A DNA stretch of 29,829 bases, from the NCBI GenBank assembly GCA_031425655.1, contig JANPJS010000075.1, positions 1 through 29,829 of the forward strand. Reading direction: 5' to 3'. Position numbers and translations under genes: made by a program. Source of the stretch: Abditibacteriaceae bacterium. Its GTDB lineage: Bacteria > Armatimonadota > Abditibacteriia > Abditibacteriales > Abditibacteriaceae. Shown here piece after piece: positions 1 to 27,432 of the stretch. Each line of letters starts with the position of its first letter. Position 1 is the stretch's first letter. Below the pieces are notes generated by a model. That model saw nothing but the letters and a program-made list of their open reading frames with translations. It was not told the DNA's origin and ran no database searches.

Positions 1-1622
1 GCGCGGCCCGAACCCCAGAGCGCGCCGTAGCTGCAATTGAGGAAAACATTGTCGGCGATCAGCACATTGTGGATGGTGGCTCCTTGCCACCACCACGAGT
101 CGGTGACGACATCCAGCCCTCCGGCGAGTCGCACGAAGTGATTATTGGTCAGTTCCAGCCGCTTGCCGCTTTGAATCATCACGCGCACGCCCGCATCGGA
201 CCAAAGGCAGTTGCGCATCACGAGTTCCATTTGGCGGTCGGCCACGTCTTCGACGAGCGTGCCGCGTTCCAAATCAAGGTCTTGGTCGAAAGTCAGTCGC
301 CAGAACGCTCGATAGCCAGTTTGGTCTTTGAACTTCATGGTGGTGCGGATGAACTCCGCTGCCGGTTCGATCCAGGGCTTGGCCTCGGCGTCGGGCACGC
401 GCTGAGCCGACACCAGTTTGGCGCTGGCAAGCGGCGTGAAATCTCTTTGGTAAAACGCGAAGCGGCTTGCGGGTTCGTCGTCCTGGTAGCGGTGCCAGAT
501 GTTGCTCCACACCACCAACTCGCGCGACCCTGTCTTTTGCCACACCATGTCCATGTTGCTGGAGGACATATCGAGCAGGTCGTCTTGCGAAGTCCGAAAT
601 TCGCAACTGTCCAGCGTCACGCGGCATTGGCGCGTTGACGCCTGCCATCCGCCGCCGCCACAGAGGCGGTTGGTGCCGGGACGTCTGCGCCCTCGCACGC
701 GGGTTAACGTGCAGGTCTCCGTGGCGTTGCGATAGCAAAAGCCGCCTCCGTAGAAATCGAGGTCGCGCACCGTCAGATTGCCGACTTCTTCCAGCACAAA
801 AAGCCAGTCTGGCCCCGACGGCCCAATGGTCGTGAGATTGCCGGGGCTGTAAAGCCGATCCCAGTAGTCGCGTTGCAGGTCTTTGCCTGCCGAAAACGTC
901 ACGCTGCGCCCGTTTGCGCTGAGCGTGGCGTTGTTCCAGGCGAACTGAGACCAGGAAATGTTGGGCAGCCAGATGCCGGCGGGACTGTAGGCGTAGAACA
1001 ACTCGTCTTTGTCCGCTTTAGCCACCAACGCGCGAAAGCCCGGCGCAACTTCCACCGTCACGCGGCGCTTTTCGTAGTCGCTGGCAACGATGCGCCCTTG
1101 CGAATACGGCAACGGATCGAAATCCACCTCCACCGGCCCCACGATCTCGAAGGATTTAACCCGCCAGAGCGAAAACAAAGGCCGCTCGATGGATTCCATG
1201 ATGAGCTGGCAATGCGGCAGGTGCAACGTGAAAGCGTCGAATGTGCCAACTCCAAAATCGCTGCCCTTGGGCAGGCGATAGACGCCGGGCGCAGCATGAA
1301 ACTCGGTTTTCCTGGCAGCGAGGGCCTCGCGGAATTCCTTGATTAACCTTATTCCGGCCCGGCGTTGCTCCGCCACTTGTTCTGCCGAATACACCTGCGG
1401 ATAAACCGGGGCATTTGCATCGTAAGGCTCAGCGGGATCGTAGAGCGTGGAGCCTTGCCGTGGCGTGGCCGGCACTTTGCCCGGCAACGAGCCAACAGCG
1501 GAGTTTTGCGCGACAGCGCGCCCGCTCAGCGATTCCAGCAGCGGCAAAGCCATGCTCACTCCGACGCCGTGCAGGAAAAAGCGGCGGTTCATCAAATTGG
1601 GGGAAGGGTTAGAAGTGTTCAT
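1..1622 (-). CDS. Right-handed beta-helix glycosidase, GH110 (alpha-galactosidase)-like, with Tat-type leader; 3' end runs off the window
   Basis: Not in the ORF track because it has no stop in the window. Hand translation from ATG 1622 is open for 540 codons: MNTSNPSPNLMNRRFFLHGVGVSMALPLLESL...DFDPLPYSQGRI...RRPGTNRL...CEFRTSQDDLLDM...WWWQGATIHNVLIADNVF. These motifs resemble GH110-type beta-helices. Confidence 0.75.
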   Translation of the reverse strand, partial: MNTSNPSPNLMNRRFFLHGVGVSMALPLLESLSGRAVAQNSAVGSLPGKVPATPRQGSTLYDPAEPYDANAPVYPQVYSAEQVAEQRRAGIRLIKEFREALAARKTEFHAAPGVYRLPKGSDFGVGTFDAFTLHLPHCQLIMESIERPLFSLWRVKSFEIVGPVEVDFDPLPYSQGRIVASDYEKRRVTVEVAPGFRALVAKADKDELFYAYSPAGIWLPNISWSQFAWNNATLSANGRSVTFSAGKDLQRDYWDRLYSPGNLTTIGPSGPDWLFVLEEVGNLTVRDLDFYGGGFCYRNATETCTLTRVRGRRRPGTNRLCGGGGWQASTRQCRVTLDSCEFRTSQDDLLDMSSSNMDMVWQKTGSRELVVWSNIWHRYQDDEPASRFAFYQRDFTPLASAKLVSAQRVPDAEAKPWIEPAAEFIRTTMKFKDQTGYRAFWRLTFDQDLDLERGTLVEDVADRQMELVMRNCLWSDAGVRVMIQSGKRLELTNNHFVRLAGGLDVVTDSWWWQGATIHNVLIADNVFLNCSYGALWGSGR

Positions 1623-1706
1623 GGTCGGGACGAGGTTTAGACGCCGTAAATCATGGCTATGAGCAAATAGGGCTTAGAAGTGTTCATGGTCGGGACGAGG
1701 TTAGAC
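1609..1706. repeat. Two-copy direct repeat (period 65 bp) of the gene start region
   Basis: TTAGAAGTGTTCATGGTCGGGACGAGGTT is identical at 1609-1637 and 1674-1702. It extends to 1642/1706 with a one-T indel. Confidence 0.95.
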
Positions 1707-1736
1707 AAGCGGCTCAGTGTTTAGGCATCGCATGGC

Positions 1737-3212
1737 TTACTGCGGGCGGGTGACAGCGTTTTTTTGCGCTTTAATAAGTAGATCGGCGAGGCGCTTCGCT
1801 TGGGCGGCTTGCTCTTGGAACAGGTTCTTGGTTTCGCCGGGGTCTTGGGCAAGATTATAGAGGCCGGGCCGGGCGGGCGCGTCCGCGTTCTTTTTCCATG
1901 TGCCATACCAGCCATCGGCAACAGCGAGGTCGGGCATATATTTCCAAGGACCGCTGCGCAGGGCAAGGTGGCCGTTGCCGCTCTGGACGACGAGGTGGTC
2001 GCGTTTGGGTGCGTCCTTTTCGCCGAGCATCGCGGGCAGAAGGTTGTAGCTATCGGGCAACGCTGCTTTGGGCGGCGTGATGCCGGCGGCGGCGCAGATG
2101 GTGGCGGGCACATCGAGCGTGGATGCGAGGTCGGGCGAAACGCCGGGCTGAATGCGGGCGGGCCAGCGGACGATGAAAGGCACACGGTGGCCGCCTTCCC
2201 AGAGCTGCGATTTCTTGCCGCGAAAGGGGCCAGTGGGGCGGTGCCCTTTTTCGTCGTTCAGATAAGCGCCGTTGTCGCTGCTGTAGACGATGAGGGTGTC
2301 TTTGGCGAGGCCAAGGCGATCGAGCGTTTGAAGTAGCTCGCCGATGGAGGCGTCGAGTTCTTGGAGCGTATCGGCGCGGTTGCCCAGGCCGCTGCTGCCG
2401 GCAAAGCGCGGATTGGGAATGGTGGGCGCGTGAACGTTGTGCGGGGCGAAGAGCAAAAAAAACTTCGCGGCCTTGTTGCGCTCGATGAACTGCACGCACT
2501 CGCGCGTGTGAACATCAGCCAGTTCGGTGTCTTTCCACCACGCAGACTTGCCGCCCTTGGCCCAGCCGATGCGGTTGCGTCCTGCCGCCCATGCGCTTAG
2601 CCCCAGTTGCTTGGCCTCGGCGGCGTCGTAGCTGTAGGTAATCGGGTCTGCGGGGTCGAGTCCCTGCACGCGATAGTCACGCACCAGCACAGTGGGGACG
2701 CGATCATTGGTGGCGGGAATGCCAAAATACTCGTGAAACCCCACTTCCAGCGGGCCAGGGCGAAGTTCTTCGTTAAAATCGGGTTTTTTCAGGCCGAATC
2801 CGAGATGCCATTTGCCGATCAGCGCGGTGCGATAGCCCGCCTGTTTGAGCAAACCGGGCGCGGTGGTCATCGTGGTGGGAATGAGCAGCGGTGATTCCGC
2901 GTTGGCGACACCTTTGTTCAAACCGGCCCCCGTTTGGCGCCAGGAATACTGCCCTGTGAGCAGGGAGTAGCGCGTGGGCGTGCAAACAGCGGCGGACGCG
3001 TGGCCATTTTCAAAGCGCTGCCCTTCCGCTGCCAAACGATCTATGTGCGGTGTCTTCACCTGAGTGGCCCCGTAGCAACCCGCATCGCCCCAACCTACGT
3101 CATCGGCCAGAATCACGATGATATTGGGCTGTTTCGGCGGAGCAGCGGCAGCGTGCCGCGCGGCCAGCGGCGCGAGCAGCAGGGCGGCGAAGAGTGTGAG
3201 GGTGGGGTTCAT
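1737..3212 (-). CDS. Exported Cys-type (S1 family) sulfatase
   Basis: PNIIVILADDVGWGD, CTPTRYSLLTG (CxPxR), GKWHLG, SSDNG, GKKSQLWEGGHRVP, LYNLAQDPGE; N-terminal signal peptide. Confidence 0.95.
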   Translation of the reverse strand: MNPTLTLFAALLLAPLAARHAAAAPPKQPNIIVILADDVGWGDAGCYGATQVKTPHIDRLAAEGQRFENGHASAAVCTPTRYSLLTGQYSWRQTGAGLNKGVANAESPLLIPTTMTTAPGLLKQAGYRTALIGKWHLGFGLKKPDFNEELRPGPLEVGFHEYFGIPATNDRVPTVLVRDYRVQGLDPADPITYSYDAAEAKQLGLSAWAAGRNRIGWAKGGKSAWWKDTELADVHTRECVQFIERNKAAKFFLLFAPHNVHAPTIPNPRFAGSSGLGNRADTLQELDASIGELLQTLDRLGLAKDTLIVYSSDNGAYLNDEKGHRPTGPFRGKKSQLWEGGHRVPFIVRWPARIQPGVSPDLASTLDVPATICAAAGITPPKAALPDSYNLLPAMLGEKDAPKRDHLVVQSGNGHLALRSGPWKYMPDLAVADGWYGTWKKNADAPARPGLYNLAQDPGETKNLFQEQAAQAKRLADLLIKAQKNAVTRPQ

Positions 3213-3218
3213 AGTGAG

Positions 3219-4430
3219 TTATTTCCGTTCTTGGTAATCCGAACTTGCCGTGAGTCCGCCGCTGCGGGCATTCACAAACCACGCGGTGGTTCCGGCGGGC
3301 AGCGGGGCGGTGACGAGCCAACCATGGTCACGCTTTTCAACGGTGGCAGATGACTCGGTCCACTTACGCTTGCCGGTAAAGCCGGTGTCCGTGGTGCTCA
3401 TCAACAGCGCACGGTCGAGCGGTTTCGTGGCGGCGAACTCAACGCGAACGGCGCCGCTTTCGATTTTCGCGCTGGTCTGCACGCACCACGGCTGGCCATC
3501 GCGCACGATGCTCTCGGCGAAGGCATAGCTGTCCGGTGGGTTGTAGGCGGGAGGGTGTCCGTGTCCCATGTCGGGAATGAGCGCGACCATGTGCTTGCCG
3601 GGTGCGCTGCGGTAGCACGCCGCTTGGCAATCGAGCGGAAAATGCTGGTCCTGCGGCCACGAGAACCACAGCACTGGCATCTTCACCCGTGCCATGCGCA
3701 CCAGCGGGTCCCATGCTTCGCGGTAGAGCATGTTGCTCCCCAAGGCCCGGCCATATTGATTATCGGCGTCGAACAGATGTCCGCAGCCATAGGTGGGGAT
3801 GGCAAAGGCGAACCGTGAGTCAATGCCGATGACGGTGCTGGTGATGACCCCGCCCCACGAGACGCCCATGATGCCGACTTTGCCCGCGTCCACCTCCGGC
3901 AGCGAGCGCAGGAGCGAATTGGCCAGCACGGTGTCGGCCACGGCGTGATACATCCACTGTTCGGTCAGCGGCAGGGCCGAATCGCCATAAATCCCGATGC
4001 GCGTCGGACCGGCCCATGCGTGCTGCTTCCATGCTTTGGGATTAGCCGCGTCGCGCTCGTCGGTCTGGCCTTCGACCGCGATGCTGATGGCCGCGAAACC
4101 ATGCTCGTTCCACTTCTTCACCCAATCCTTGAACGCCGTGCCACCCCCGCCGTGCACAAGAACGACCGCTGGCACCTTGCCCGTGCGCATTTTTGGCAAT
4201 CCGAGCCACGCGAAGACCTTCGTCGGCTTTCCTTTCCACGGCAGCGCCTCGAAGAAGACCGCCTTCAGGCCATCCTCGCTGGTCAAGCCCTCCGCCGGTT
4301 GCATCGCGGGCGGCGTGGTGAGCGCGGCGAGTGCAAGGATTTGTTCGCGCGACGCAGCGGTATCGCCGGCATGCAGCGCAGCCAGCGGCGCCAGCAGCAG
4401 GGCGATGAGGAGTGTGAGGGTGTGTTTCAT
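3219..4430 (-). CDS. Exported alpha/beta hydrolase (acetylxylan-esterase/dienelactone-hydrolase-like)
   Basis: VVLVHGGGG oxyanion motif, GVSWGG nucleophile elbow, D in QDQHF and H in GHGH. Start placed at ATG 4430 (ATGA overlap with the upstream stop). Confidence 0.88.
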   Translation of the reverse strand: MKHTLTLLIALLLAPLAALHAGDTAASREQILALAALTTPPAMQPAEGLTSEDGLKAVFFEALPWKGKPTKVFAWLGLPKMRTGKVPAVVLVHGGGGTAFKDWVKKWNEHGFAAISIAVEGQTDERDAANPKAWKQHAWAGPTRIGIYGDSALPLTEQWMYHAVADTVLANSLLRSLPEVDAGKVGIMGVSWGGVITSTVIGIDSRFAFAIPTYGCGHLFDADNQYGRALGSNMLYREAWDPLVRMARVKMPVLWFSWPQDQHFPLDCQAACYRSAPGKHMVALIPDMGHGHPPAYNPPDSYAFAESIVRDGQPWCVQTSAKIESGAVRVEFAATKPLDRALLMSTTDTGFTGKRKWTESSATVEKRDHGWLVTAPLPAGTTAWFVNARSGGLTASSDYQERK

Positions 4431-5551
4431 GGTTTCCAATCTATTCGGGCTTTCTTCGTTTCGAGATTAACGAACACCGAGGCATGGGCAAATTCCCTTT
4501 GGTAACTCCAGCCGGTTTGCTTGGCTTCACCCAAGGGCGCTCCCAACGGTCGCTCCAATTCCGGGTAGGATTCGAGCGTCCCGTGGCGGTCGGTGTAGCC
4601 CCACGAGTAACAAAACAACGACCCCGGACGAGCCGCGACGAGAAAACACGCCAGCGGAAACGTGATCTGTTCGCGGGCGAGCTTCAGCAACTCCGCCTCA
4701 GGCCGCTTCATCATTTCATTATCCATCCAGTTGAAGCCCGGCCAGCCCTTGACCACGACAAACTTGCCCTTGGCTGCCGCCAGCGCGATGGTTTCGATAT
4801 CGGCCCGGATGGCCGCCGCTAGGTTGCTCCTGAACGCCGCGAAATGCTCAATCATCACGCCGTCCAAGCCCTCCCAATCGAGAATTCCCCGAAACTCGGT
4901 AGCGCGTGTTCCGTTGGCCAACACGATCTTGTCCGCGCCCATTTTCCGTTTGGTGAGAGCGATCATTTCACGCAAGCCCGCGACCACCGCCTTGGCCTTT
5001 TCGCTGCCAACCGCCTTCGTCAAAGCCGGAGTGAGCGCCTGCGGCAGTGCGTCCACAAATACCCCGTCAATCGGGCCGCGCTTCATTTCGTTTGCGATCA
5101 CGTCCGACCACCACTCGCGGAACGCCGCGTTCGACGGGTCGGGCCGGGGCGTGCCCGAAGTATGTTTGACGATTTCGCCGCCCGCCGTGCGCAGCGTCCA
5201 CTCCGGCCGATAGGTCTTGAACGCCTCGTAACCACCCCAGTTGATGAAGGCATTGAAATAGAAGAGCACCTTGACCGTCGGATTACGCTGCTTGAGCCGC
5301 CGCGCCGTGTCCGCCACGCCCGCCTCCGTGCTGCCGTGTGCGCTGGCACCGTGCCCCTTTTCCAACGTGACCATAACGCTGTGCTTCGCGAGGAAATCAA
5401 TCTCCGCATCCGTCATGTTGCCACTGCGCTTGCCAAAATGAATGTTCAGCGGCACGCGATCCCAATGGGCCGATGGCGGCGCATCGGCGGCGTGCAACAT
5501 GGCCAACGGCGTGAGCAGCAGAGCGGCGAGCAGGGTGAGGGTGGGTTGCAT
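4427..5551 (-). CDS. Putative glycoside hydrolase, GHL15/GH168 (endo-1,3-fucanase)-like TIM barrel
   Basis: WDRVPLNIHFGK, VTLEKGHG, GSTEAG, NPTVKVLFYFN, DGVFVDA, DGVMIEHF, ACFLVAA, PLGAPLG, REFAHASVFVN match the recalled GHL15/GH168 pattern. GAAAGGA RBS lies before ATG 5551. Confidence 0.75.
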   Translation of the reverse strand: MQPTLTLLAALLLTPLAMLHAADAPPSAHWDRVPLNIHFGKRSGNMTDAEIDFLAKHSVMVTLEKGHGASAHGSTEAGVADTARRLKQRNPTVKVLFYFNAFINWGGYEAFKTYRPEWTLRTAGGEIVKHTSGTPRPDPSNAAFREWWSDVIANEMKRGPIDGVFVDALPQALTPALTKAVGSEKAKAVVAGLREMIALTKRKMGADKIVLANGTRATEFRGILDWEGLDGVMIEHFAAFRSNLAAAIRADIETIALAAAKGKFVVVKGWPGFNWMDNEMMKRPEAELLKLAREQITFPLACFLVAARPGSLFCYSWGYTDRHGTLESYPELERPLGAPLGEAKQTGWSYQREFAHASVFVNLETKKARIDWKP

Positions 5552-5573
5552 GGTGGTTCCTTTCATCTGATGG

Positions 5574-7151
5574 CTACTTTCCAACTGGGCCGACGAACTC
5601 CTCGCGGCTTACTTTGCTGTCGTTATTTTTATCAAAGCGCTTGAAACGTTCTTCGATCTCAGGGCCGTCTTTCTGGCTGTTTTTATATTCTTCAAGCGCG
5701 AGGGAGCCGTCCTTGTTCGTGTCCCAGCGATTGAAAGGCACGTTGCGATCTTTCACGGGCGCTTTCGTCGTTGGGGCCGGACTTCCGATTTCCGGGGAGC
5801 GCTTCTCGGATTCGGTGCCCCGGTCTTTGCTCACGCAGGCGGGATCTGCTTTGGTGGGCAGCGTCGCATTCCAATCACGGACGAGTTTGCTCAGGCGCAG
5901 GGTGATTTCCGGGTGCGCTTGGGCGGCATCCTTGCCGGCGTCTTCGGCGCGATTCGCCTTGAGATTGTGGAGTTCGACCCGCTGGCCATCGAAGGTCGTC
6001 ACCAGTTTCCAATCCCCGTCTCGCACCGCCAGATCAGGCCAGAAGTCGGGGTCCTTCTTGTTGCCGTTGATCCGCCAGAAAATGGGCCGAGTGCGCAGAA
6101 CGGATTCGCCCTTGAGAGCCGGGAGCAGGTTTTCGCCGTCGCCATTGGCGTCGGTCGGCGGGGTGACTCCGGCGGCGGCGCAGAAGGTGGGGAGTAAATC
6201 CACCGCCGTCAGAACCGTGGCGTCGTTTTTCAAGCCGGCCGGAGCATGGCCCGGCCACCGCACGATGAACGGCACGCGCACACCGCCTTCAAAGAGACTG
6301 GTCTTTTGTCCCCGCAGGCCGCCGCTTTCACCGATGCTGTAGTGGCTGCGATATTTTCCGGGAACGCCTTTGTCGTTTTCCTTGGACTTCGCCGGGCCGT
6401 TATCGCTGGAAAAAACCACAAGGGTGTTCTGCGCGATTCCGCAACGCTCCAGCGCATCGAGGATCATGCCGACTTTGTTGTCGCCGTCGGTGATGACCGC
6501 CGCGTAAACCTGTTGCCGCGGGTCGAGATGTTTCCACCGCGCCATGGCTTCGTCCGACGGGCTGTGGGCCAGATGGCTCTCGTGCAGCCATACGTTCACG
6601 TAGAACGGACGGCCTTTGTTTGCCTCGATGAACTTCACCGCCTGGTTGGGAATATCGTTCCCCGATGGTCCGACTTTCGGCCCTGGTCCGTGATAGACCG
6701 CCGACTCGTCAATGCCGTAGTCCGCCATGGTCGGTTTCCCTTCCCCCAGATGCCATTTGCCAAAGTGCCCCGTGCGATAGCCTGCTGCTTTGAGCAAGCG
6801 TGGTGTCGTGGGTGCCTTGGGGTCCAACCAGTCCGGCATCTCCGGCGGCTTGCCGACACCGAAAACCTTATTTATTCCGAAGCGACCCGGAAAACGTCCC
6901 GTCAGGGCCGCCGCACGACTGGGCGAGCAGATCGGACTGAGCACATTGAACTGCTGGAAATCAATGCCCTCACTCGCGAGTTTGTCGAGGCGCGGAGTTT
7001 TCAACCACGTGTTGCCGTGACAGGATAGATCGCCCCAGCCCCAGTCATCGGCGTAGATAAATACGATGTTGGGTTTGGGCGCATCCGCGGCTTGCAGCGC
7101 AGCCAGCGGCGCGAGCAGCAGCGTGGCGAGGAGTGTGAGGGCGATTTTCAT
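5574..7151 (-). CDS. Exported Cys-type sulfatase with C-terminal EF-hand pair
   Basis: PNIVFIYADDWGWGD, CSPSRAAALTG, GKWHLG, SSDNGP, FEGGVRVP; tail DTNKDGSLALEE and DKNNDSKVSREE. AAAGGA RBS lies before ATG 7151. Confidence 0.95.
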   Translation of the reverse strand: MKIALTLLATLLLAPLAALQAADAPKPNIVFIYADDWGWGDLSCHGNTWLKTPRLDKLASEGIDFQQFNVLSPICSPSRAAALTGRFPGRFGINKVFGVGKPPEMPDWLDPKAPTTPRLLKAAGYRTGHFGKWHLGEGKPTMADYGIDESAVYHGPGPKVGPSGNDIPNQAVKFIEANKGRPFYVNVWLHESHLAHSPSDEAMARWKHLDPRQQVYAAVITDGDNKVGMILDALERCGIAQNTLVVFSSDNGPAKSKENDKGVPGKYRSHYSIGESGGLRGQKTSLFEGGVRVPFIVRWPGHAPAGLKNDATVLTAVDLLPTFCAAAGVTPPTDANGDGENLLPALKGESVLRTRPIFWRINGNKKDPDFWPDLAVRDGDWKLVTTFDGQRVELHNLKANRAEDAGKDAAQAHPEITLRLSKLVRDWNATLPTKADPACVSKDRGTESEKRSPEIGSPAPTTKAPVKDRNVPFNRWDTNKDGSLALEEYKNSQKDGPEIEERFKRFDKNNDSKVSREEFVGPVGK

Positions 7152-7348
7152 TGCGGTTCCTTTTTGGCGGTTTGCCATTCACTCAAGCCGCTGCATATTT
7201 CGGTCGTGAATTTTATGTTTTCCGCGTCATAATGTTTGTCTGCGCGGCAAAGCGAACGCGCTGCGAAAAAAACAATTCTGCGCCCAGCAAAAAGGAGTCG
7301 CCTTCGTCGTTGGAATTCAGCATTTCGACGAGCTGAAAACTGGTCTGC

Positions 7349-8707
7349 TTATGGGACTTTCGCGCCCGTTTTAATCGCCTCGCCATATTGCGGGAAGAGG
7401 AACAGCGCGGGAAATTCGTCTTTGGCGGTGCTGTCGGGGCTGCCGTAATGCCAGTGCAGCACGCCGGCGAAGGCGTGCGCACCGAGGGCTTGATGAAATT
7501 CGCGCAGCAAGTTCACGCCAACGTCGTGGGGGATATTCTGCCAGTCGGGGCCGCGACGCATGTGATGCGCGGCGACACCGCTTTCGCCGACGAGGATGGG
7601 CTTGCCAAGGCGTTTGGCCTGCGCGGCGAGCAAGGTCAATTCAGCGGAGTCGAGATCGCGCTGAAGGTGTTGGGCGATGGTTTCGGTCTTGGATTTTGCG
7701 GCGTAGAGGTGAATATCCACAAAGTCGAGGCTCGAATCCAGCAGCGCCAGCGGGCGGGCGGGCACGCGCATATCTTTGGTTTGATCCTTCGACCAAGTGC
7801 CCGGCCCTTGCCTGCCGACGGCGGCGAAGGTGAAGACGCTGGCGCTCACCAAAGCCTGCTTGTCGGCGGCGTGAATGGCATCGGCGCAGGCGGTCGCCCA
7901 GGCGCGGGTCGCGGCGTCCATCAACGCCTGTGCGCCGCTGTCGGTTGTGAGGTCGAACTCACGCCCGCCAAAGGCAAACGCCGCCGGACGCGAGAGGAAC
8001 GGCTCCTGATCGAAATAGAAATGCACCTCGTTTTCCAGCTCCCAAGCGAGCACGACGGGCAACAGTTCCGGCGCGCTGTTACGAAGTGCTTCAATGAGCG
8101 CGCGGATGGCGTTGGCCTTGGCGCGGATGGGTTTTGGCGTGAGGCGGAAGCCGTTGACCTTGAGTTGTTGTTTGGAATCCGTCACCCAGCCGTGTCGGGC
8201 TTCGTCAGCGAGCGGCATCTCCGCCCAGGCGCGCGAATCCGGCGTCCACATATCCCAACAAAGAATGACGCGGATGCCCTGGGTTTGCGCGGCGCGCAGA
8301 AAATGGACGAGATTGCGGAGGTAGGCGGGGTTTACCTCGCCCAATTGAGCCTGCGTGACGATGCCGTTGGCCCCGCTGTGGTTGCTCAAAAACGAGCGAA
8401 CGGTGTTGAAGCCATCGCGCGACAGGCTTTCCATCATGCGCGTGATGAACGTCTCGTCGTAGCTGCCGGGACTGAAGGCCGCGTGGCCTTGTTTCTTCTC
8501 ATCAACCGGGCCAAGGCGATAATAATTCACTCCGAGCGGGCGAAAGGGCTTGCCGGTGCCCGTATCCACGAAACGCCCGTCGCGCATGGCGATGCGGCTC
8601 GTCTGGGTTTTGTTTTTCACTGGATTTGGTTTGGTTGGCTCCGCCGCCGGCGCGACAGCCAGAGGCGCGAGCAGCAGGGCGGCGAAAAGTGCAAAGGCGC
8701 GTTTCAT
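7349..8707 (-). CDS. Clan GH-A (GH5/cellulase-like) glycoside hydrolase
   Basis: PLGVNYY, GFNTVRSF, AWELENE (acid/base), DFVDIHLY, KPILVGESG (nucleophile). The real start is MKRAFALF at 8707 (ATGA overlap). Confidence 0.82.
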   Translation of the reverse strand: MKRAFALFAALLLAPLAVAPAAEPTKPNPVKNKTQTSRIAMRDGRFVDTGTGKPFRPLGVNYYRLGPVDEKKQGHAAFSPGSYDETFITRMMESLSRDGFNTVRSFLSNHSGANGIVTQAQLGEVNPAYLRNLVHFLRAAQTQGIRVILCWDMWTPDSRAWAEMPLADEARHGWVTDSKQQLKVNGFRLTPKPIRAKANAIRALIEALRNSAPELLPVVLAWELENEVHFYFDQEPFLSRPAAFAFGGREFDLTTDSGAQALMDAATRAWATACADAIHAADKQALVSASVFTFAAVGRQGPGTWSKDQTKDMRVPARPLALLDSSLDFVDIHLYAAKSKTETIAQHLQRDLDSAELTLLAAQAKRLGKPILVGESGVAAHHMRRGPDWQNIPHDVGVNLLREFHQALGAHAFAGVLHWHYGSPDSTAKDEFPALFLFPQYGEAIKTGAKVP

Positions 8708-9495
8708 GGTTTGCAGTGCGCTTTGACAAAGGCAACGAGTTCTTCGCATTGGAAAAAGCCCGGCCACATGTTGTGGCCCTGGCCCAGAGGAATAATCAGT
8801 TGCATCGCGCCGCCCAACGCCGCGTAGCGCGTTTTCATCAGACCGGAATTGGCTTCCAGCGGCACTACTTTGTCTACGTCGCCGTGGATGGCAAAAAGCG
8901 GCACCCCGGCTTTGGCCAGCAGTGCTAGGCGCTCCACCGGGTTGAACTCGGCCAGTCGCGTTTGCAACTCCTCCGGCGTCATCTTGAAGGCGGGCGCGGC
9001 TTTCGCAAGGCCGGGATAGCTGCTGAGGTTGCACACCGGATAGATGCCGGCGAAACCGCCGACTTTGTCGGGGTTGGCGGCGGCCCACGACAGCGTCATC
9101 AAACCGCCCCGGCTGCGGCCTAACATCACCGGCTTGCGCGAGAAGCCGCGTTTTTCGGTCAGTTCGGCGTAGAGCGCGGAAAACAGCGCATTTCCCGCCG
9201 GGCTGCCGTAAGATTCGCCCGCGTCAATGCCCGCGATGGCGATGCCCGCGTCGGTGAACTTTTCAAACATCCACTTTTCCGCTTCGCCGGGCAGGTTCGG
9301 CAAAGTGGGCGCATACCACACCCACGGCTTGGCCTTGCCATCGGCGGCGCCTTTGGCCGGGATAACAAAAGCCGTGCTGCCTTGCACCGCGAAAACTTCG
9401 CCCGGCAGCGGCAGTTTTTTGGTCGGTGGTTCAGCAGCGTGGGCGGTGCCAAACGGCGCCAACAGCAGGGCGGCGAGGGTGAAAATTGGTTTCAT
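8704..9495 (-). CDS. Exported alpha/beta hydrolase (S9-like esterase)
   Basis: GRSRGG elbow, IHGDVDKVVP, GQGH; signal peptide from ATG 9495. Confidence 0.88.
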   Translation of the reverse strand: MKPIFTLAALLLAPFGTAHAAEPPTKKLPLPGEVFAVQGSTAFVIPAKGAADGKAKPWVWYAPTLPNLPGEAEKWMFEKFTDAGIAIAGIDAGESYGSPAGNALFSALYAELTEKRGFSRKPVMLGRSRGGLMTLSWAAANPDKVGGFAGIYPVCNLSSYPGLAKAAPAFKMTPEELQTRLAEFNPVERLALLAKAGVPLFAIHGDVDKVVPLEANSGLMKTRYAALGGAMQLIIPLGQGHNMWPGFFQCEELVAFVKAHCKP

Positions 9496-9556
9496 GGTGA
9501 TAAGTGTGGAGCCAGGGTGGTTCAAAAGTCACGGGCACAGGGCGTGGCAGCCCGTT

Positions 9557-9581
9557 GTAGGGGCGAACCTTGTGTTCGCCC
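9557..9581 (+). repeat. GTAG-family REP element
   Basis: GTAG followed by a perfect 8-bp hairpin GGGCGAAC-CTTGT-GTTCGCCC. Confidence 0.75.
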
Positions 9582-9604
9582 ACTCCTATTCGGATAGGTT
9601 CTAA

Positions 9605-9763
9605 GAAACAGTCTAAAAAGTGGCGGCGACTCCCTTCCCCTTTGCCGTTTCAAGGGGAAGGGCCGGGGATGGGGTTCTGAAAAACAGCAGAACCCCACCC
9701 TAACCCTCCCTCCTGCCCAGAGGGCACCCGACGGCAAGGGGAGGGGACTTTTCAGACTATCTC
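9605..9763. mobile_element. 159-bp MITE-like element with IS5/IS1182-style terminal inverted repeats and an internal palindromic repeat
   Basis: GAAACAGTCTAAAAAGT (9605-9621) versus the reverse complement of 9747-9763 (GAGATAGTCTGAAAAGT) match 14/17. TAA lies on both sides (9602-9604, 9764-9766). Internal stems are 9632-9642/9652-9662 and 9670-9679/9688-9697. Confidence 0.65.
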
Positions 9764-22548: not shown

Positions 22549-23607
22549 TCACCGTTTGTTGCCCAGCAAGTCCAGCATGGTTTCCGCGAAGGCTTTGCCC
22601 AGCAAAATAAAAAACCGGCCCTCGCCGTAGTAGTGATAGCCCTGACTGGACGTGGCGCGTTTGAGCATAGTGTCCTCGTCGGGCGTGAGCGGCTGCTTTT
22701 TTAAGTCGCGCTCGGTGTTGAGCCAGCCAACGGTTTTGAGTGCCACGATGTCGGGATGGAGCAGCGGCGCGCTTTCGATGGCTTTGACGTTGCCCGCAAA
22801 CTCCGCGACGGTGTTGACCGAGCGCTGCGCGTCGCGAATCTCCTTTTGCTTGCCGACTTCGTTTTTCACGCCGTTGACGCCCATCACGCCGACCACGACT
22901 TTCATCTGCGGCGCTTTGAATTCGGCGCGCAAATCCTTGATGAGATGCACCAAGTTTTGCCCGTATTCCTTGCGCGCGTTTTCATCGAACTGATCGTTGT
23001 AGCCCTGAAACCACACGAAGCCCGCCACCTCGTAGCCGTCCTTTTCGTTGTAGGCCGGAAAATGCTTTTTGAGGTTGTCCAGCGTCTGGTGGGCATAGCC
23101 GGTCAGCACGCGATATTGCGCGCCGATGTCTTCGGGCTTCATGCCCTTGATTTCCGGCTTCCCGGAGCTGGGCGGGCGAAAATTGGCATACAAACTCTGG
23201 CCGCCGGGGCCGTATTTGATGAGCAAAACCTGCTCGTCCAGCGCTTCGCCCATGTAATAGCCAAAGGCATATTCCGGGCCGATGCAACTTCCCAGTTTGT
23301 CGTAGTTTTTGCGCCCGCCAAAGCCCGGTTGCAGCTTGTCGTAGACACCGGCGTTGGCCACCCAAACGTCGTCGCGTGTTACCAACTTGCCATCGAGCTT
23401 AAAGGTTTTCAGCAGCGCGGCACGGGCCGGGTCTTTGTCCTCGCCGAGAAAATCAATCGTCGAAACATTCGCCTGCCCGTCCATGTTCGACTGCCCGGCG
23501 AGAATGAAAACTTTTAGTGGTTTGGCGTGCGCGGACGTGGTGAGGCAGAGCGCCAGCAGTCCGGCGGCGGCGGCGGAAATTTTGAGGGGCATGATTTTGT
23601 CTTTCAT
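22549..23607 (-). CDS. SGNH sialate O-acetylesterase (SASA/CE6)-like carbohydrate esterase
   Basis: KVFILAGQSNM, GPEYAFG, GFVWFQGYND, GYHY. Confidence 0.9.
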   Translation of the reverse strand: MKDKIMPLKISAAAAGLLALCLTTSAHAKPLKVFILAGQSNMDGQANVSTIDFLGEDKDPARAALLKTFKLDGKLVTRDDVWVANAGVYDKLQPGFGGRKNYDKLGSCIGPEYAFGYYMGEALDEQVLLIKYGPGGQSLYANFRPPSSGKPEIKGMKPEDIGAQYRVLTGYAHQTLDNLKKHFPAYNEKDGYEVAGFVWFQGYNDQFDENARKEYGQNLVHLIKDLRAEFKAPQMKVVVGVMGVNGVKNEVGKQKEIRDAQRSVNTVAEFAGNVKAIESAPLLHPDIVALKTVGWLNTERDLKKQPLTPDEDTMLKRATSSQGYHYYGEGRFFILLGKAFAETMLDLLGNKR

Positions 23608-26090
23608 TTTTTTGCCGTCGAAGACGTTGGCACCTCTGGCTTCACTTTTCGATAGAGAAACGCATCGGAAGTGAGCAGGGACGTCAACAACGCCTTCATG
23701 CTGCCGTTGTTGTCGCGGTAGGCTTGGTAAGCATCTTGTAAAATCGGCGCGTCGTTGATGGTTTCATTGCGTCCCATCCAGAAACGAAAAGCATGGCGCA
23801 CAAAAACCTGATTCACCCGTTCACTGGCCGCAAGTTTCCTGATCATTTCTGCGGGGTCCTTAACCGGCCCATCCAATGCCGGATCGCCGCTGAGAATAAT
23901 TTCGCCAGTGGTATCAACCGGGTGGCCCCAGTTATTTGAGGGGTTCGTATCGAGAAGAATTCCCAACTGATTATATTTTTCAAAGGGCAGGCCGAGCGGA
24001 TCCATTTTCTGATGACAGCGCCAGCATTCTGGCGCACGGGTGACGCGCATCCGTTGGCGCATGGTTGACCGGGGTTCATCCGGCAGCTTGGCATCCACGG
24101 TTATCGGAATATCCGGCACGGCATCACCCAGCAGGCGTTCCCGAATCCAGCGTCCGCGTGAAATGGCGTGGTTGTCCATCGCATCCGAGTGAGCGACCAG
24201 CCAAACGGGATGGGTGAGAATGCCGAGGCGCTCGCGTGTGTCCACGGTGGTTATGGCCTTTAATGCGTTTATGGCAGGCGGGAATCGGCCTTGGTCGAAT
24301 GGGGACTGACGCACATAAATTGGCTGGGCGGGATTCGGAAATATATGATGAAGCATGTTCTGGTCATAAACTTCCCTTTGCGCCCTTTCGATTACTAATT
24401 TATTGTCTTTTGTAGGTGCTATTGCCTCATATTTCTTGAACTCGACAAACCGTTTGCCCCGGTTCATGAAGTAAGCGATGTCGGTTTTAAACAAGATGCC
24501 GTCCCTGAAATTCGCGCCCGACGTGTAGGGTTGATAGATCACGCGGTCAGTGGTCAATATTTCCTGCAAAACGTTTTTATCATCCCGCAAAATCAATTCG
24601 ATCAGGCCATCCGTGTTGGCGACCATGCTGTTCATGGATGCATAAATCGTATCGAAATGGCCCCCGTCGCGTTCGAGGGTTTTTCTATCCTTGCAAATGC
24701 CGGGGGCGCGGTCGTAGTCGAAATATTCCCTGAAGAACTGCAGCACGCGGGGTTTTCGGATGTTTTCGTCACTCAGAATGCGAGCGACTTCCCGCTTGAC
24801 GTCTTCGCGTGTCTTGAGTTTTCCCTCGGATAGTGCCGTCCACAGATGGTCGTTTTTCGGACGGATATAGGAAAAAGCCGCGTTGATGGCCAGCACAAGT
24901 TCCTGTCCTTGCAGCATCACGCGGCCATACTTGTCCGGCTTTCCGTTTTCACAAAGCTCCGGGCGAAAGAGCGCGTCGCGGTCGAGGAAGATCGGTAGCA
25001 GACCCACAAAAACCCCGTCTTCCTTGCCGAGTTCCTTGATGGACTTGCTCGCAATGTCCAGATAAGTGGCGGTTTCTGCCTTGCTGGGTGGGCGCAGCGT
25101 CAGAGATTCAAACAGAAAATTAATGACGGTTTTCAGACGCTCGTCGCTAACGCCCGGCGTATTCATCAGGTCATATACGGGCGTCAGTGGCCGGTAAATT
25201 CCCTTTTTGTAGAAAATGATATTCAGATTTCTATATTGTCCGGGGATTTTGTTGATATCATCGGCAAACTGGTAAGGCTCCGCAGCGGGGCCGTAGGCCA
25301 TGAAACGCAGCACCTTTTCGGCGGTGCCGGCAATCTGCAGAGCCTCGGAGCTGTTCACAGAGTAAAGGAACGGGTAGTTGCGTAGCCCGTGATCTCGGAC
25401 CAGCGACAAGTTGGACTGAAAACCGCCGACGCCAAAGTTATAGGCATCGTTGAAACTTCCCAGATAGCCATCCAAACCGAAATAGACTTTGGTTTCCCCT
25501 TCCAGATTCGAGGGTATCTGATCGCCGTGCGTCCACAATCCTGGGCGCTCCGGATCATATTTCCGTTTAAGGCTAATGAGGTCATTCAGGCGCACCAGTT
25601 GTTCCTGTGGATGAATGCGCCAGATGCGTGCCGGGGTGGATGAGGGTTCAAGGCCTTTGAACGCAGCGCCAAAAAGCAGATCGTGATCGAGATGATTCGC
25701 CTTGCTGGGGCGCAAGTGTTCACTGAACCCGCCCTTGTCCTTCATGGCCCTGGTCATTCCATCGGTGATCCAATTGGATAGTTCCAAGCGCTCCATCAAT
25801 TTCGGCTGGTTTGCCTTTTTCCTCGGCGGCATTTCCTTCAAGGCCACCTGTTCCCAGACGCGTTTCCACATGCTGGCATTATCCGCCGAGACATCAGCCA
25901 GACCCTCCAGGGAAACGTCTCCTTTCTTGGTCTCATCGTCATGGCAATCCATGCAGTATTTTGCAAAAAAAGGCCTGGCCGTTTTCTGAAAATCCGCTGC
26001 TCCCACGTTCGACGCCCCGGCTTGAGCCGCATGAGCCAGCGCCGAAAAGGTCAACAAAGCCACGCAATAAATGAGTCGGGAAATTTGCAT
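23604..26090 (-). CDS. DUF1588/DUF1592/DUF1585-type planctomycete cytochrome c domain protein
   Basis: CMDCH near the N-terminus, RLGILTHPVWL, RGRWIRERLLG, CWRCHQKMDPLGLPFE, terminal LLTSDAFLYR. Confidence 0.9.
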   Translation of the reverse strand: MQISRLIYCVALLTFSALAHAAQAGASNVGAADFQKTARPFFAKYCMDCHDDETKKGDVSLEGLADVSADNASMWKRVWEQVALKEMPPRKKANQPKLMERLELSNWITDGMTRAMKDKGGFSEHLRPSKANHLDHDLLFGAAFKGLEPSSTPARIWRIHPQEQLVRLNDLISLKRKYDPERPGLWTHGDQIPSNLEGETKVYFGLDGYLGSFNDAYNFGVGGFQSNLSLVRDHGLRNYPFLYSVNSSEALQIAGTAEKVLRFMAYGPAAEPYQFADDINKIPGQYRNLNIIFYKKGIYRPLTPVYDLMNTPGVSDERLKTVINFLFESLTLRPPSKAETATYLDIASKSIKELGKEDGVFVGLLPIFLDRDALFRPELCENGKPDKYGRVMLQGQELVLAINAAFSYIRPKNDHLWTALSEGKLKTREDVKREVARILSDENIRKPRVLQFFREYFDYDRAPGICKDRKTLERDGGHFDTIYASMNSMVANTDGLIELILRDDKNVLQEILTTDRVIYQPYTSGANFRDGILFKTDIAYFMNRGKRFVEFKKYEAIAPTKDNKLVIERAQREVYDQNMLHHIFPNPAQPIYVRQSPFDQGRFPPAINALKAITTVDTRERLGILTHPVWLVAHSDAMDNHAISRGRWIRERLLGDAVPDIPITVDAKLPDEPRSTMRQRMRVTRAPECWRCHQKMDPLGLPFEKYNQLGILLDTNPSNNWGHPVDTTGEIILSGDPALDGPVKDPAEMIRKLAASERVNQVFVRHAFRFWMGRNETINDAPILQDAYQAYRDNNGSMKALLTSLLTSDAFLYRKVKPEVPTSSTAKK

Positions 26091-26091
26091 G

Positions 26092-27432
26092 TCAAGCCAA
26101 CAATTCCTCGATGGGGCCGAGCTTGCTGTGATTGATGTTGGCCAGTGTTTTGTCTATGTTGAAGCGGTCAACCGGCGTGCCGACCCCGTGAAGAAAGGTG
26201 GTGTAGAGGTCGTTGATCGGGCGTTCTTTGATGTTGGTGTATTGACCCGTCTTGAAGCGTCCGCCGCCGTTGCCAAGCAGCACAAATGGCCAGGTCGCGC
26301 CTTCGGAATGCTGTTTCTCGGCATTGTTGCTGGAATACACGATCAATGTGTTGTCCATCATGGAACCGGTGCCTTCGGGAGTGGCCTCCAAAGCTTTCAT
26401 GAGCTTGATCAGCATTTCGCAGTTATAGTGGCGGATTTTTGTCCAGATCAGATTGCCGGGTTGGTCAATATGACCCAGCCCATGGCCAGAGTCGCTGATG
26501 CCCAAGCCTTTCCATGAGCCGAAATACTCACCGCATCCGGAGGCAATTGTCAAAACATTGGTCAGGTTTGCTTGCAGCGCCGCGATGCCGATTTCCAACA
26601 GGGCGTCGTGCCAGTCGGTTTCAAATTTCGGATTGCTGTAGCGGTCGTCGAGTTTCGGGGCGAATTTCTTGAGTTGTGCCGAAATCCCGGACAGCTTTTC
26701 ATTCAACCCGTTAATGTCCCGAAAGCCGGTGACATATCTTGCGTAGCGTTCGCCTTCGCTCGGCGGCAGACCTTTGGTTTTAAGCTGGGCCACACGCTCC
26801 ACTTCGAGCATGACATTGGAGCGAGCCTCGTAGTGCTGCTTGACAGCGCCTTCGGCGATGCTGCCAAAGAGCATCTGGTAGAGCATATTGGGGTCGCAAT
26901 GCATGAAAATCGGCTGATTCGGCCCCGAAGCGGACAGCGTGGCGAGGGTCGGACGTGCCCTCATGCTGTCCAGTGATTCCATGCCAATGCACAGCGGCGG
27001 AAGAATCGTCTGCGGAAGCGACCGGCTCAGCACATAGTCAATGGTGGCGGCAGACGGAGGCACACCGGTTCCGCCACGATAGGCACCAAGAGCGCCGAAA
27101 TAGGCGCTGTGCCCCGGATTCGTATGGCGGCCATGCAAACCTGTGATGATGTGCATCCGGTTTTTGTAAGGCTCCAAAGCCTGCATCGGCTTTTCGAGCG
27201 GCAAGCCGTCGAGAGCGCAGCTTTCCCTGTTGAGATCCTTGGGGATACAGGTTAGGGGGTCGAACCCATGGTTTTGCAGAAAGAAAATAACGCGCTTCGG
27301 ACCGCCAGCCGTTTGAACGACAGGTTTGTCTGCGGCCTGAGCCATTTTTGGCAACAAGCTCGTGCCAAGCAGCGCACCGACACCGACAGCCGTTTCACGC
27401 AGCATTTCCCGGCGACTAATTCTTCTTTGCAT
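26092..27432 (-). CDS. DUF1552 (HXXSHH) family protein with Tat-like leader
   Basis: ISRREML, PKRVIFFLQNHG, GLHGRHTNPGH, TIDY, GHGLGH, TPEGTGSMMDNTLIVY, WPFVLLG. GGAGGAG RBS lies before ATG 27432. Confidence 0.9.
   Translation of the reverse strand: MQRRISRREMLRETAVGVGALLGTSLLPKMAQAADKPVVQTAGGPKRVIFFLQNHGFDPLTCIPKDLNRESCALDGLPLEKPMQALEPYKNRMHIITGLHGRHTNPGHSAYFGALGAYRGGTGVPPSAATIDYVLSRSLPQTILPPLCIGMESLDSMRARPTLATLSASGPNQPIFMHCDPNMLYQMLFGSIAEGAVKQHYEARSNVMLEVERVAQLKTKGLPPSEGERYARYVTGFRDINGLNEKLSGISAQLKKFAPKLDDRYSNPKFETDWHDALLEIGIAALQANLTNVLTIASGCGEYFGSWKGLGISDSGHGLGHIDQPGNLIWTKIRHYNCEMLIKLMKALEATPEGTGSMMDNTLIVYSSNNAEKQHSEGATWPFVLLGNGGGRFKTGQYTNIKERPINDLYTTFLHGVGTPVDRFNIDKTLANINHSKLGPIEELLA

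Follow-up and report, generated by a model that had tools for sequence, protein, structure and literature searches.

Why do six consecutive genes for mostly unrelated enzymes open with nearly the same DNA? The window, by which we mean the whole 29,829-nucleotide stretch analysed (positions 1 to 29,829 of contig JANPJS010000075.1, from an Abditibacteriaceae bacterium), carries an array of six consecutive minus-strand genes for secreted-type enzymes predicted to cleave sugars or sulfate, each with a copy of a signal-peptide-coding leader at its 5′ end (Table 1). Stop-to-start spacers along the array measure 6, −4, 22, 197, and −4 nt. Sigma-70-like sites at the array numbered 4, compared with 2.0 ± 1.3 in shuffles, and the coding strand upstream of 9495 held none. 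The GH168-like protein matched endo-1,3-fucanase 8ya6 with an E value of 3e-40.

Table 1. Genes, leader copies, and the leader-to-leader cassette of the window.
Feature	Position	Strand	Basis or remark
Beta-helix gene, downstream of array	3..1622	-	profile match and genome comparison
Sulfatase gene (PF00884)	1737..3212	-	profile match
AXE1-like alpha/beta hydrolase gene	3219..4430	-	profile match
GH168-like glycoside hydrolase gene (GHL15, PF14885)	4427..5551	-	profile match and fucanase homology
Sulfatase gene with C-terminal EF-hand-like domain	5574..7151	-	profile match
GH5-like gene (PF00150)	7349..8707	-	profile match
S9-like alpha/beta hydrolase gene	8704..9495	-	profile match
Leader copy 1 (signal-peptide-coding repeat)	3147..3212	-	1 mismatch to 36-nt core pattern
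Leader copy 2	4365..4430	-	switch point
Leader copy 3	5486..5551	-	switch point
Leader copy 4	7086..7151	-	cargo with other upstream DNA in L022, L025
Leader copy 5	8642..8707	-	degenerate, 5 mismatches
Leader copy 6	9433..9495	-	degenerate, one codon short; heads the array's first gene
Leader-to-leader cassette (GH168-like cargo, stop, next leader start)	4381..5554	-	93% identical in L191, L095

The first-pass annotation had described three leaders as 83–86% identical with common CTC ACA CTC codons, an upstream sequence common to two copies, and a similarity that fades past the cleavage site. These observations held on re-measurement. Over 63 nt, the leaders at 3212, 4430, and 7151 share 84.1, 82.5, and 85.7% pairwise identity, with CTC ACA CTC at codons 5–7 in each; AAAGGAACC lies upstream of both 5551 and 7151; and identity past the leader (nt 70–120) falls to 24–45% in all 15 pairs of the six copies. 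The consensus leader drawn for all six genes stood in part: every gene has a copy, but the fit is rough, the copies at 8707 and 9495 being degenerate and the latter matching two other copies at only 60–70% once a 3-nt gap is allowed. A Shine-Dalgarno-like motif, AAAGGAAC, occurs at 22 of 439 leader sites, outside the conserved module.

The same annotation had proposed comparing the leaders with a codon-usage null and with the divergence of their catalytic domains. We ran a null of 20,000 simulations that kept the amino acids fixed and sampled codons from the mature portions of the six genes. The trio at 3212, 4430, and 7151 scored 0.841 against 0.674 ± 0.025, and the five in-register copies 0.770 against 0.648 ± 0.015; no simulation reached either value, which places leader identity beyond composition and codon bias. 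Synonymous codons were also checked in a set that included 112 copies with 4–8 mismatches, beyond selection by any DNA pattern. In these divergent copies, Leu5, Leu7, and Leu8 are CTC at 82–88% (context null, 24–45%), Leu16 is CTG at 82% (32%), and Ala10 is GCC at 89% (28%). At non-leader gene starts, ACA stands at 25% and AAA at 73%, so these two codons partly reflect ordinary N-terminal bias and the position-fixed CTC/CTG/GCC pattern is the stronger homology signal. The leader core (nt 19–48) is near-invariant across classes of Verrucomicrobiota. Core identity is 0.84 between leaders of non-homologous cargo and 0.85–0.88 between those of homologous cargo, so leaders fail to track their catalytic domains, and leaders next to one another show no greater likeness than random pairs do (0.745 versus 0.775). 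The leader is thus a DNA-homologous repeat of about 66 nt. Codon bias, codon context, and N-terminal bias are rejected as its cause, since synonymous fixation exceeds all nulls; leader–cargo co-divergence and local concerted evolution are rejected by the two identity comparisons. Neither of the conditions that the first-pass annotation had set for its own refutation was therefore borne out.

By inspection, the encoded peptide has a basic n-region, a hydrophobic h-region, a helix-breaking Pro, and an A-x-A cleavage site, and it lacks both a lipobox Cys and a twin Arg; a Cys falls within residues 17–26 at 22 of the 439 sites. We therefore predict a signal peptide of the Sec/signal peptidase I type that would direct export and be cleaved. 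Leaders head ORFs of at least 150 aa at 328 of 439 sites, the others heading shorter ORFs (57) or ORFs that run off the locus (54). Conservation is highest at second codon positions, reaching 93–99% at the core leucines, and every indel seen keeps the frame. Together, these three features argue that the peptide is under selection.

Leaders head genes of 169 protein clusters, within array loci that hold 533 clusters in total. One Verrucomicrobiota family has them in 50 of its 145 genomes searched; in the host's phylum the figure is 3 of 301. Adjacent leader pairs are co-oriented in 261 of 262 cases, at a median spacing of 1637 nt. Arrays also repeat a mini-cassette of about 190 bp that contains three short palindromes; 17 copies were found, none of them in the arrays of G000. 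There were no exact leader matches in viral contigs and no match in phage and plasmid collections, on which grounds a phage or plasmid carrier was rejected. NCBIfam gave nothing above cut-off for the leader, the ESM Atlas no usable match for it, and Rfam no match in the window or in three mini-cassette loci. A literature search that included leader peptide fragments, and covered main texts with few subscription papers, returned no description of the leader.

Tetranucleotide use of window positions 1–9000 is nearer to Verrucomicrobiota arrays than to the host, and beyond 10 kb the contig is host-like. Its left end is shared at 93–96% with G002, a genome of the host's genus. There, the counterpart of the beta-helix gene is 96% identical and begins with a degenerate leader; in the window, the gene instead has the 5′ end of a DUF1552-like gene. 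Of two continuations of the window, one, the C91 array, ends beside dciA-recF-dnaN-dnaA. A misbinned contig is unlikely given the host-like sequence beyond 10 kb, the left end shared with G002, and a possible continuation that reaches dnaA. RpoB of the Luteolibacter-titled genome that shares the GH168-like cassette at 93% DNA identity matches that of G000 only piecewise, the longest piece at 60%. As judged by comparative genomics, cassettes have been transferred between phyla, probably from Verrucomicrobiota to the host.

Related arrays place other genes on either side of these leaders. L191 and L095 both contain the GH168-like cassette, together with ~50 nt from the start of the next leader, among other neighbours. 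The former locus is Luteolibacter-titled and the latter is a metagenome contig. At leader copy 2, the same upstream GH168-like end leads through this leader into other cargo in L022, L191, and L095. At copy 3, L191 and L095 have the same cargo behind an unrelated gene, and in L025 it is a sulfatase that comes after a related upstream sulfatase end. The cargo of copy 4 recurs behind other upstream DNA in L022 (94%) and L025 (89%). At copy 5, locus L040 of G027 has a homologue of the upstream gene, then a leader, then different cargo; at the S9-like gene, positions 8664–9413 of the window are 74% identical to a leader-bounded unit in the same locus. A truncated piece of the GH5-like gene, 92% identical, sits behind another leader on C91 of G000, and the 5′ part of the AXE1-like gene is 88% identical to L132, where the upstream sequence is different.

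Counts across loci follow the same pattern. Flanks were complete at 347 sites; of the pairs among these at ≥85% identity, 18 shared the upstream flank only, 22 the downstream flank only, and 4 both. In a one-family set (48 loci from 17 genomes, 40 loci new), the next gene differed in 57 of 66 leader–leader junction pairs compared with 13 of 28 non-leader pairs. Counted by connected groups, the ratios were 19:7 and 9:13 (Fisher p 0.04, upstream-anchored), and the downstream-anchored contrast gave p 0.01. Both flanks were shared in 9 of 122 pairs of this set. Because non-leader junctions also switch, the array regions are fluid in general. Of 54 ends of alignments at ≥90%, 23 lay in leaders on both sides, 11 on one side, and 2 at non-leader starts, against a background of 390 leaders, 505 non-leader starts, and a 2.4% random expectation, a count inflated by loci having been fetched around leaders and by the shared leader lengthening alignments. 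We set aside an initial pair count (139/258/5), which the mini-cassette and short flanks had inflated, and an earlier control (24:1 versus 7:7), dominated by one G000–G002 block. The reads captured no exchange directly: in X1, the best-matching of four read runs, one contig passes unbroken through two leaders (4586–8411), and the contigs of this run, which drop rare variants, showed no leader-to-leader deletion. Run X10 has a head-to-tail-type joint from 5496 to 4389 (depth 3.5, 88% likeness) that may be a repeat artefact, and run X3 a leader–leader joint from 8682 to 4404 (depth 3.2, 88% likeness); neither joint is taken as evidence of exchange.

Within the leader, linkage to the upstream flank falls from nt −20 to 36 (0.78, 0.62, 0.47, 0.29, 0.06), and linkage to the cargo climbs from nt 28 to 66 (0.14, 0.34, 0.39, 0.61). 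In the family set, the 20 nt before the ATG show linkage to the upstream gene (0.61) but none to the cargo (−0.01); upstream linkage there decays faster, to 0.26 at nt 1–9 and 0.12 at nt 10–18, and the switch falls within the first 17 nt after the ATG in 4 of 16 inspected mixed pairs. Crossover brackets from nine triples, a small number blurred by later mutations, include non-overlapping ones (nt 8–29, 41–52, and 45–49). Homology runs continuously from the upstream gene through the spacer and ends inside the leader, and codon indels are frequent in leaders at switch points. Cargo at 85–92% identity occurs both with the leader and with ordinary, unrelated signal peptides, and a leader-headed cargo is in one case a domain internal to a protein elsewhere. 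Comparative genomics places the changes of gene order within the leader. The ribosome-binding site and the 5′ end of the leader go with the upstream gene, the leader 3′ end goes with the cargo, and leaders have been grafted onto new cargo. The earlier suggestion that the leader is a recombination anchor is thus well supported. The accompanying idea of a mobile leader holds only in part: leaders do not simply hop in front of genes, and the moving unit runs from mid-leader to mid-leader.

We consider it likely that the locus is an integrase-free cassette array, shuffled by homology at the signal-peptide-coding repeat and imported from Verrucomicrobiota. The leader would double as a Sec/signal-peptidase-I-type export signal and as the crossover site for cassettes of secreted enzymes that degrade glycans. 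Each cassette would comprise the 3′ half of a leader, the mature enzyme, its stop, a short spacer bearing the ribosome-binding site, and the opening of the next leader (its ATG and 5′ half). A crossover between two leaders, within roughly nt 10–55, would insert, delete, or reorder cassettes. Because every crossover would rebuild an in-frame signal peptide with its start codon and translation signal, any cargo would become an exportable gene in a co-directional row. Exchange would presumably proceed by the host's homology-dependent recombination (RecA), probably often with a long shared cassette as a one-sided anchor, resolution in the leader, and DNA from the environment. A circular intermediate may be involved, the array genes would be co-transcribed and their proteins exported, and repeated exchange may keep synonymous sites uniform across lineages.

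Perfect runs shared by adjacent leaders have a median of 13 nt and reach at least 20 nt in 24% of 231 pairs. For RecA-mediated transformation, 25–35 bp is quoted in the passages cited here (PMC6382021), so most leader pairs would be poor two-sided substrates. The same passages describe homology-facilitated illegitimate recombination, in which a long RecA anchor and a short match integrate foreign DNA, at low frequency and at incidental microhomologies (PMC6382021). Such a process would account for exchange between leaders whose perfect runs are short; going by that description, the leader differs in being a standing repeat that organizes arrays. All five array-bearing genomes have recA and four have comEC, which says little because 10 of 14 control genomes have both.

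A site-specific recombinase or HUH nuclease encoded elsewhere could instead use the leader core as an integron-like att site, a reading we regard as unlikely. It would account for the very high switching rate at leaders despite the short perfect runs and for the near-invariant core; the recurrent palindromic mini-cassette also speaks for it, and unlinked tyrosine recombinases and Y1 transposases occur in all five genomes tested. Against this, seven folds of the window leaders gave no attC-like hairpin (z −0.72 to +2.34), the mini-cassette is missing from G000's arrays, and the gradual linkage gradients, non-overlapping brackets, and frequent codon indels do not suit a fixed site. PF00589 had no match on G000's array contigs, which are short enough that such a gene may lie past a contig end, and across five genomes only 2 of 50 matches share a contig with a listed leader match, ~33 and ~92 kb away. 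No integrase, resolvase, or transposase family appeared among 120 proteins of G000's array contigs, and no recombinase among the 45 largest of the array-locus clusters, as judged from N-terminal sequences. A tRNA-targeted genomic island was rejected as well, with 0 tRNA or tmRNA genes in the 48 loci (many borders lie beyond the fetched DNA) and no bordering integrase found. Separately, one Y1-transposase match (C37:30312, E 2.5e-4) was seen on a G000 array contig.

Less probable again is a spread of the leader by gene conversion, or by being grafted onto resident 5′ ends, with gene order changing for unrelated causes. Grafting is real, given close cargo with and without the leader, and non-leader junctions shuffle too. 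Both flanks should then persist, yet they are shared in only 4 of 44 and 9 of 122 pairs; the continuous homology ending in the leader and the lack of homogenisation between neighbours also weigh against it. We give little credence to a dedicated tag for a special export route, as the first-pass annotation had entertained, with DNA likeness arising from descent or translation-level selection. Selection on the peptide favours a tag but leaves synonymous sites free, and their fixation exceeds the context and N-terminal nulls. Close cargo homologues carry ordinary signal peptides, the leader persists in a host from a different phylum in which 298 of 301 genomes have none, and switching inside the leader is left unexplained. 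Chance convergence from amino-acid composition and codon bias is refuted: signal peptides are Leu/Ala-rich and AAA and ACA are enriched at all N-termini here, yet no null simulation matched the observed identity, the reversed-pattern control gave 0 matches in every genome searched, and 294 of 301 sampled Verrucomicrobiota genomes have no match.

Integrons comprise the tyrosine recombinase gene intI, attI, palindromic attC sites, and the Pc promoter. Leader arrays resemble them in their co-oriented, tightly packed single-gene units with unrelated functions, variable order, and distant hosts. They differ in having no linked integrase or palindromic attC, in crossovers spread over more than one fixed position, and in a boundary within coding sequence, such that the gene start within a cassette is that of the following gene and not its own. 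PeSLs of T4-like phages are non-coding promoter/stem-loop elements for which mini-circles have been shown, and their authors, in the passages cited, themselves compare PeSL cassettes with integrons (Arbiol et al. 2010, PMC2839356; Comeau et al. 2014, PMC4122927). As described there, both systems place short dispersed direct repeats between variable genes as homologous-recombination sites for insertion, deletion, and replacement, with a dedicated recombinase identified in neither. The leader repeat, by contrast, is protein-coding, unstructured, and an in-frame signal peptide, and its arrays lie in bacterial chromosomes of two phyla with enzyme genes of 1–2.5 kb and circles that are hypothetical.

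Two further systems share single features with the leader. The phytoplasma SVM signal (PF12113), named after sequence-variable mosaic regions, is a presumed signal peptide on SAP11 and SAP54 according to the cited portion of PMC8026896, which refers to Jomantiene et al. 2007. On that account, both are one presumed signal-peptide motif on different secreted proteins; the sequences differ, and so does the cargo, which consists of small effectors in the wall-less parasites and of large enzymes for glycan degradation in the leader arrays. None of the six array proteins matched PF12113 at E ≤ 0.01. In relapsing-fever Borrelia, the portion of PMC4534519 cited here describes an upstream homology sequence at the start of vmp genes and silent paralogues copied into one expression site. 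The likeness, so far as this portion goes, is a conserved 5′ stretch at the gene start that serves as a recombination entry point. Leader cargo falls into 169 clusters, and most leader copies open a full-length ORF where they stand, on which basis expression-site antigenic variation of the vmp/vls type was rejected.

Verrucomicrobiota and Lentisphaeria carry sulfatases and glycosidases for sulfated polysaccharides in very large repertoires that vary between strains. The leader offers a concrete joint, a ~66-nt coding repeat, for the exchange of whole enzyme genes, including across phyla. As a DNA probe, it leads to secreted enzymes, many without a known family. It also carries a warning, in that being neighbours in a leader array is no evidence for membership of one pathway. 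A bolder reading, which we hold tentatively and at somewhat less than an even chance, is an integron analogue without an integrase: hundreds of sulfatase, glycosidase, and esterase cassettes might be excised as leader-bounded circles and plug into any array. The pool, on the same tentative footing, might be common to Verrucomicrobiota classes and another phylum. If this were true, a standard signal-peptide joint would make each new combination translatable and exportable, and new domains could be recruited into the shared pool of cassettes.

The six enzyme genes form a head-to-tail row on the minus strand (see table), and the leader that the first-pass annotation had them share, a DNA repeat of about 66 nt coding a signal peptide, is real. 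The claim held fully for three copies, which are 82.5–85.7% identical in pairs over 63 nt, and less well for those at 8707 and 9495, which are degenerate. As had also been proposed, similarity fades past the leader, with only 24–45% identity over nt 70–120. The codon-usage null suggested as a check, run by keeping the amino acids and sampling codons from the mature portions of these six genes, predicts a trio identity of 0.674 ± 0.025; 0 of 20,000 simulations reached the observed 0.841.

Leader-bearing genes of the array (window positions)
Product	Start	Strand	Remarks
S9-like hydrolase	9495	-	leader degenerate
GH5	8707	-	leader degenerate
Sulfatase with EF-hand tail	7151	-	
GHL15/GH168-like glycosidase	5551	-	E 3e-40 to endo-1,3-fucanase 8ya6
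AXE1-like esterase	4430	-	
Sulfatase	3212	-	

To guard against circularity, leaders were gathered by an amino-acid profile (489 unique sites, 240 loci), and codon use was read at the 112 sites with 4–8 mismatches, beyond selection by any DNA pattern used. At these sites, Leu 5, 7, and 8 are CTC in 82–88% (context null 24–45%, other N-termini 34%), Leu 11, 12, and 16 are CTG in 75–82% (null 32–51%), and Ala 10 is GCC in 89% (null 28%); ACA at codon 6, at 41%, partly reflects a bias common to N-termini (25%). Over the 328 leader genes compared, the core (nt 19–48) is 0.84 identical between non-homologous cargo, the mature enzyme part behind the leader, and 0.85–0.88 identical between homologous cargo of up to 97% protein identity. 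The leaders therefore do not track their enzymes, and the co-divergence named beforehand as a refuting outcome is absent. The leaders are alike by DNA homology and not by convergence.

The proposed scan of the genome and of PVC genomes recovered the leader in both. A profile scan of the host genome found more copies, the strong ones on five contigs (C91, C140, C37, C111, and C243) rich in sulfatase and glycosidase genes. An exact pattern of 34 fixed bases matched 25 loci in the species-genome collection, all titled Verrucomicrobiota or Lentisphaerae, and the proteins behind it are mostly unrelated to each other. A similar pattern occurs in at least 134 metagenome stretches and had 0 matches in viral contigs. 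With up to 3 mismatches, the core is present in 3 of the 301 host-phylum genomes (host counted), in 7 of 301 in the phylum of a Prosthecobacter-titled genome (that genome counted), and in 50 of 145 in the latter's family; the reversed-pattern control gave 0 in all genome sets searched. Positive genomes carry up to 40 clustered copies. Of the 997 called ORFs, 317 begin with a leader, and these form 169 clusters; adjacent leaders point the same way in 261 of 262 cases.

Units between leaders, here called cassettes, run from the 3′ half of one leader through the enzyme, stop, and a spacer with the ribosome-binding site to the ATG and 5′ half of the next. Window 4381–5554 spans the GH168-like gene and ~50 nt at the start of the next leader, and recurs at 93% identity in a Luteolibacter-titled locus (L191) and a metagenome contig (L095). 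Downstream, different genes follow in each of the three; upstream, the window is unlike both, and the gene's own leader is visibly more diverged than its cargo. This unit is the clearest case of gene order changing inside the leader. Another locus (L022) shares the same gene end at 94–97%, yet has another continuation; in genome G027, a leader with other cargo comes after the 9495 gene's homologue; and a genome of the host's genus (G002) shares 93% with the host upstream of one leader, with different sulfatases after it. Separately, L025 holds two related cassettes in tandem: a sulfatase end akin to that of the 7151 gene, then a leader with a sulfatase that matches the start of the 7151 gene at 89% identity.

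Of 439 sites with ≤8 mismatches, 347 had full flanks; at ≥85% identity, pairs of these had only the upstream flank in common in 18 cases, only the downstream flank in 22, and both in 4. Within a single family (17 genomes and 48 loci, 8 of them reused), the following gene differed in 57 of 66 leader–leader pairs versus 13 of 28 pairs at non-leader junctions (counted as connected groups, 19:7 versus 9:13, p 0.04; downstream-anchored, 22:8 versus 5:11, p 0.01). Since non-leader pairs also switch, these regions are fluid in general, with an added contribution from leaders. Of 38 mixed pairs, 16 were inspected individually: in 9 the filter had missed a variant leader, altered by a codon indel or at many positions, whereas the switch lay no more than 17 nt from the ATG in 4, just past the stop in 2, and inside the cargo in 1; variant leaders also occurred in 1 of 9 non-leader pairs inspected (of 13). 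Alignments of ≥90% gave 54 informative ends, of which 23 were placed in a leader on each side and 11 on one side only, a share inflated because loci were fetched around leaders; non-leader starts supplied 2, against 505 such starts present. The leader is very likely a preferred exchange point, whatever the enzyme. Elsewhere, homology with G002 (L038, 93%) over window 1671–2189 begins mid-gene in the 3212 sulfatase, which suggests a possible chimera or an exchange inside the gene.

Linkage of variable leader positions to the upstream flank falls from 0.78 (nt −20 to −1) through 0.62, 0.47, and 0.29 to 0.06 (nt 28–36), while linkage to cargo rises (0.14, 0.34, 0.39, and 0.61 at nt 55–66). In the family set, upstream linkage decays faster (0.61, 0.26, 0.12) and the 20 nt before the ATG are unlinked to cargo (−0.01); the ribosome-binding site and start codon therefore belong to the end of the preceding cassette. 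Comparison of loci shows the coding repeat to be the site of cassette exchange, where every joint restores an in-frame signal peptide.

An integron array looks alike in its co-oriented single-gene cassettes of variable order, yet tests for a linked integrase, attC hairpins, and one fixed crossover position were negative. A single cut site fits less well than spread-out homologous crossovers: brackets from nine triples include nt 8–29, 41–52, and 45–49, some non-overlapping, with 2 of 9 uninformative or at the ATG. The leaders form no hairpin. The host's array contigs hold no tyrosine recombinase, and the nearest matches to one in four other genomes lie about 33 and 92 kb away from a leader. 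Pfam scans (first 500 residues of 120 host island-contig proteins and 102 flank proteins in the four genomes) returned sulfatases, glycosidases, planctomycete-type cytochrome/DUF1501/DUF1552, restriction-modification, and housekeeping genes, with one weak integrase match; the 48 loci hold no tRNA genes. We consider it probable that exchange proceeds by host homology-dependent recombination. recA is present in 5 of 5 genomes and comEC in 4 of 5, both common genes anyway. The short shared runs are a difficulty, because the perfect match between adjacent leaders has a median length of 13 nt, below the 25–35 bp quoted for RecA-mediated transformation (PMC6382021). Likely routes would be recombination between the best-matching quarter of leader pairs, or a one-sided event for which a long shared cassette serves as anchor and the leader as the point of resolution. 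In read runs, covered as assembled contigs only, no exchange event was seen, and one contig runs unbroken through two leaders.

In the host, the array is an import, because tetranucleotide use of window 1–9000 is nearer Verrucomicrobiota arrays than the host, while the remainder is host-like. Host RpoB is 86% identical to that of G002 and 63% to that of G027, and matches three Verrucomicrobiota/Lentisphaerae genomes in pieces only (51–60% over the longest). The contig start overlaps host contigs C90 and C91 by 141 nt each, and thus has a duplicated or alternative continuation; beyond the overlap, C91 carries more leader genes, then dciA, recF, dnaN, and dnaA. At the end of its array, adjoining dciA-recF-dnaN-dnaA, a truncated GH5-like gene behind a degenerate leader (C91:19089–19420, L235) is 92% identical to window 8350–8601. 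The host, itself of a different phylum, also has Planctomycete/Verrucomicrobia-type cytochrome c-DUF1588/DUF1592 and DUF1552/DUF1501 gene pairs (window 23604–27471, C140, C243, C111), further imports that lack the leader. Scattered among the imported enzyme genes on C140, C37, C181, and C243 are restriction-modification genes: AccI-like and BsoBI-like ones, pieces of type I S and R, and Eco57I-like methylases.

Some cargo pairs of 85–92% identity begin differently, one locus having the leader and the other an ordinary signal peptide (L078/L046, L194/L205, L099/L049), and in L086/L065 the leader heads a domain that elsewhere lies within a longer reading frame; the pool can thus grow by grafting at the leader's 3′ end. 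Many arrays also hold a 187–197 bp mini-cassette between leaders (17 found, including L014, L015, L017, L068, L078, L089, L111, L119, and L196), comprising a leader, three short TTCCAA-n3-TTGGAA-type palindromes, stop, and ribosome-binding site, and coding for a ~54-aa peptide. It has no Rfam match, is absent from the host's arrays, and is possibly a REP-like passenger of the system. In window 3–1698, a beta-helix gene begins with the 5′ end of a DUF1552-like gene, where G002 has a leader (L036:16913), and a 73-nt duplication lies at 1624–1698. Palindromic REP-like sequences immediately upstream of the array (9540–9760) are a high-copy repeat, given a depth of 568 in one sequencing run against about 13–30 over most of the array. 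A 183-nt internal piece of the 13218–16382 gene recurs downstream of that gene at 96% identity (12710–12892/14254–14436).

Shared signal motifs are known in phytoplasma SVM proteins (PMC8026896) and conserved 5′ recombination sequences in antigenic-variation systems (PMC4534519). Shuffling at PeSL, the promoter/stem-loop repeat of T4-like phages, works alike (PMC2839356; PMC4122927), whereas the leader is protein-coding, chromosomal, and cross-phylum. A literature search, with subscription journals mostly outside its coverage, found no paper on the leader. Within the literature searched, the leader arrays represent a variant of repeat-mediated cassette shuffling not described before.
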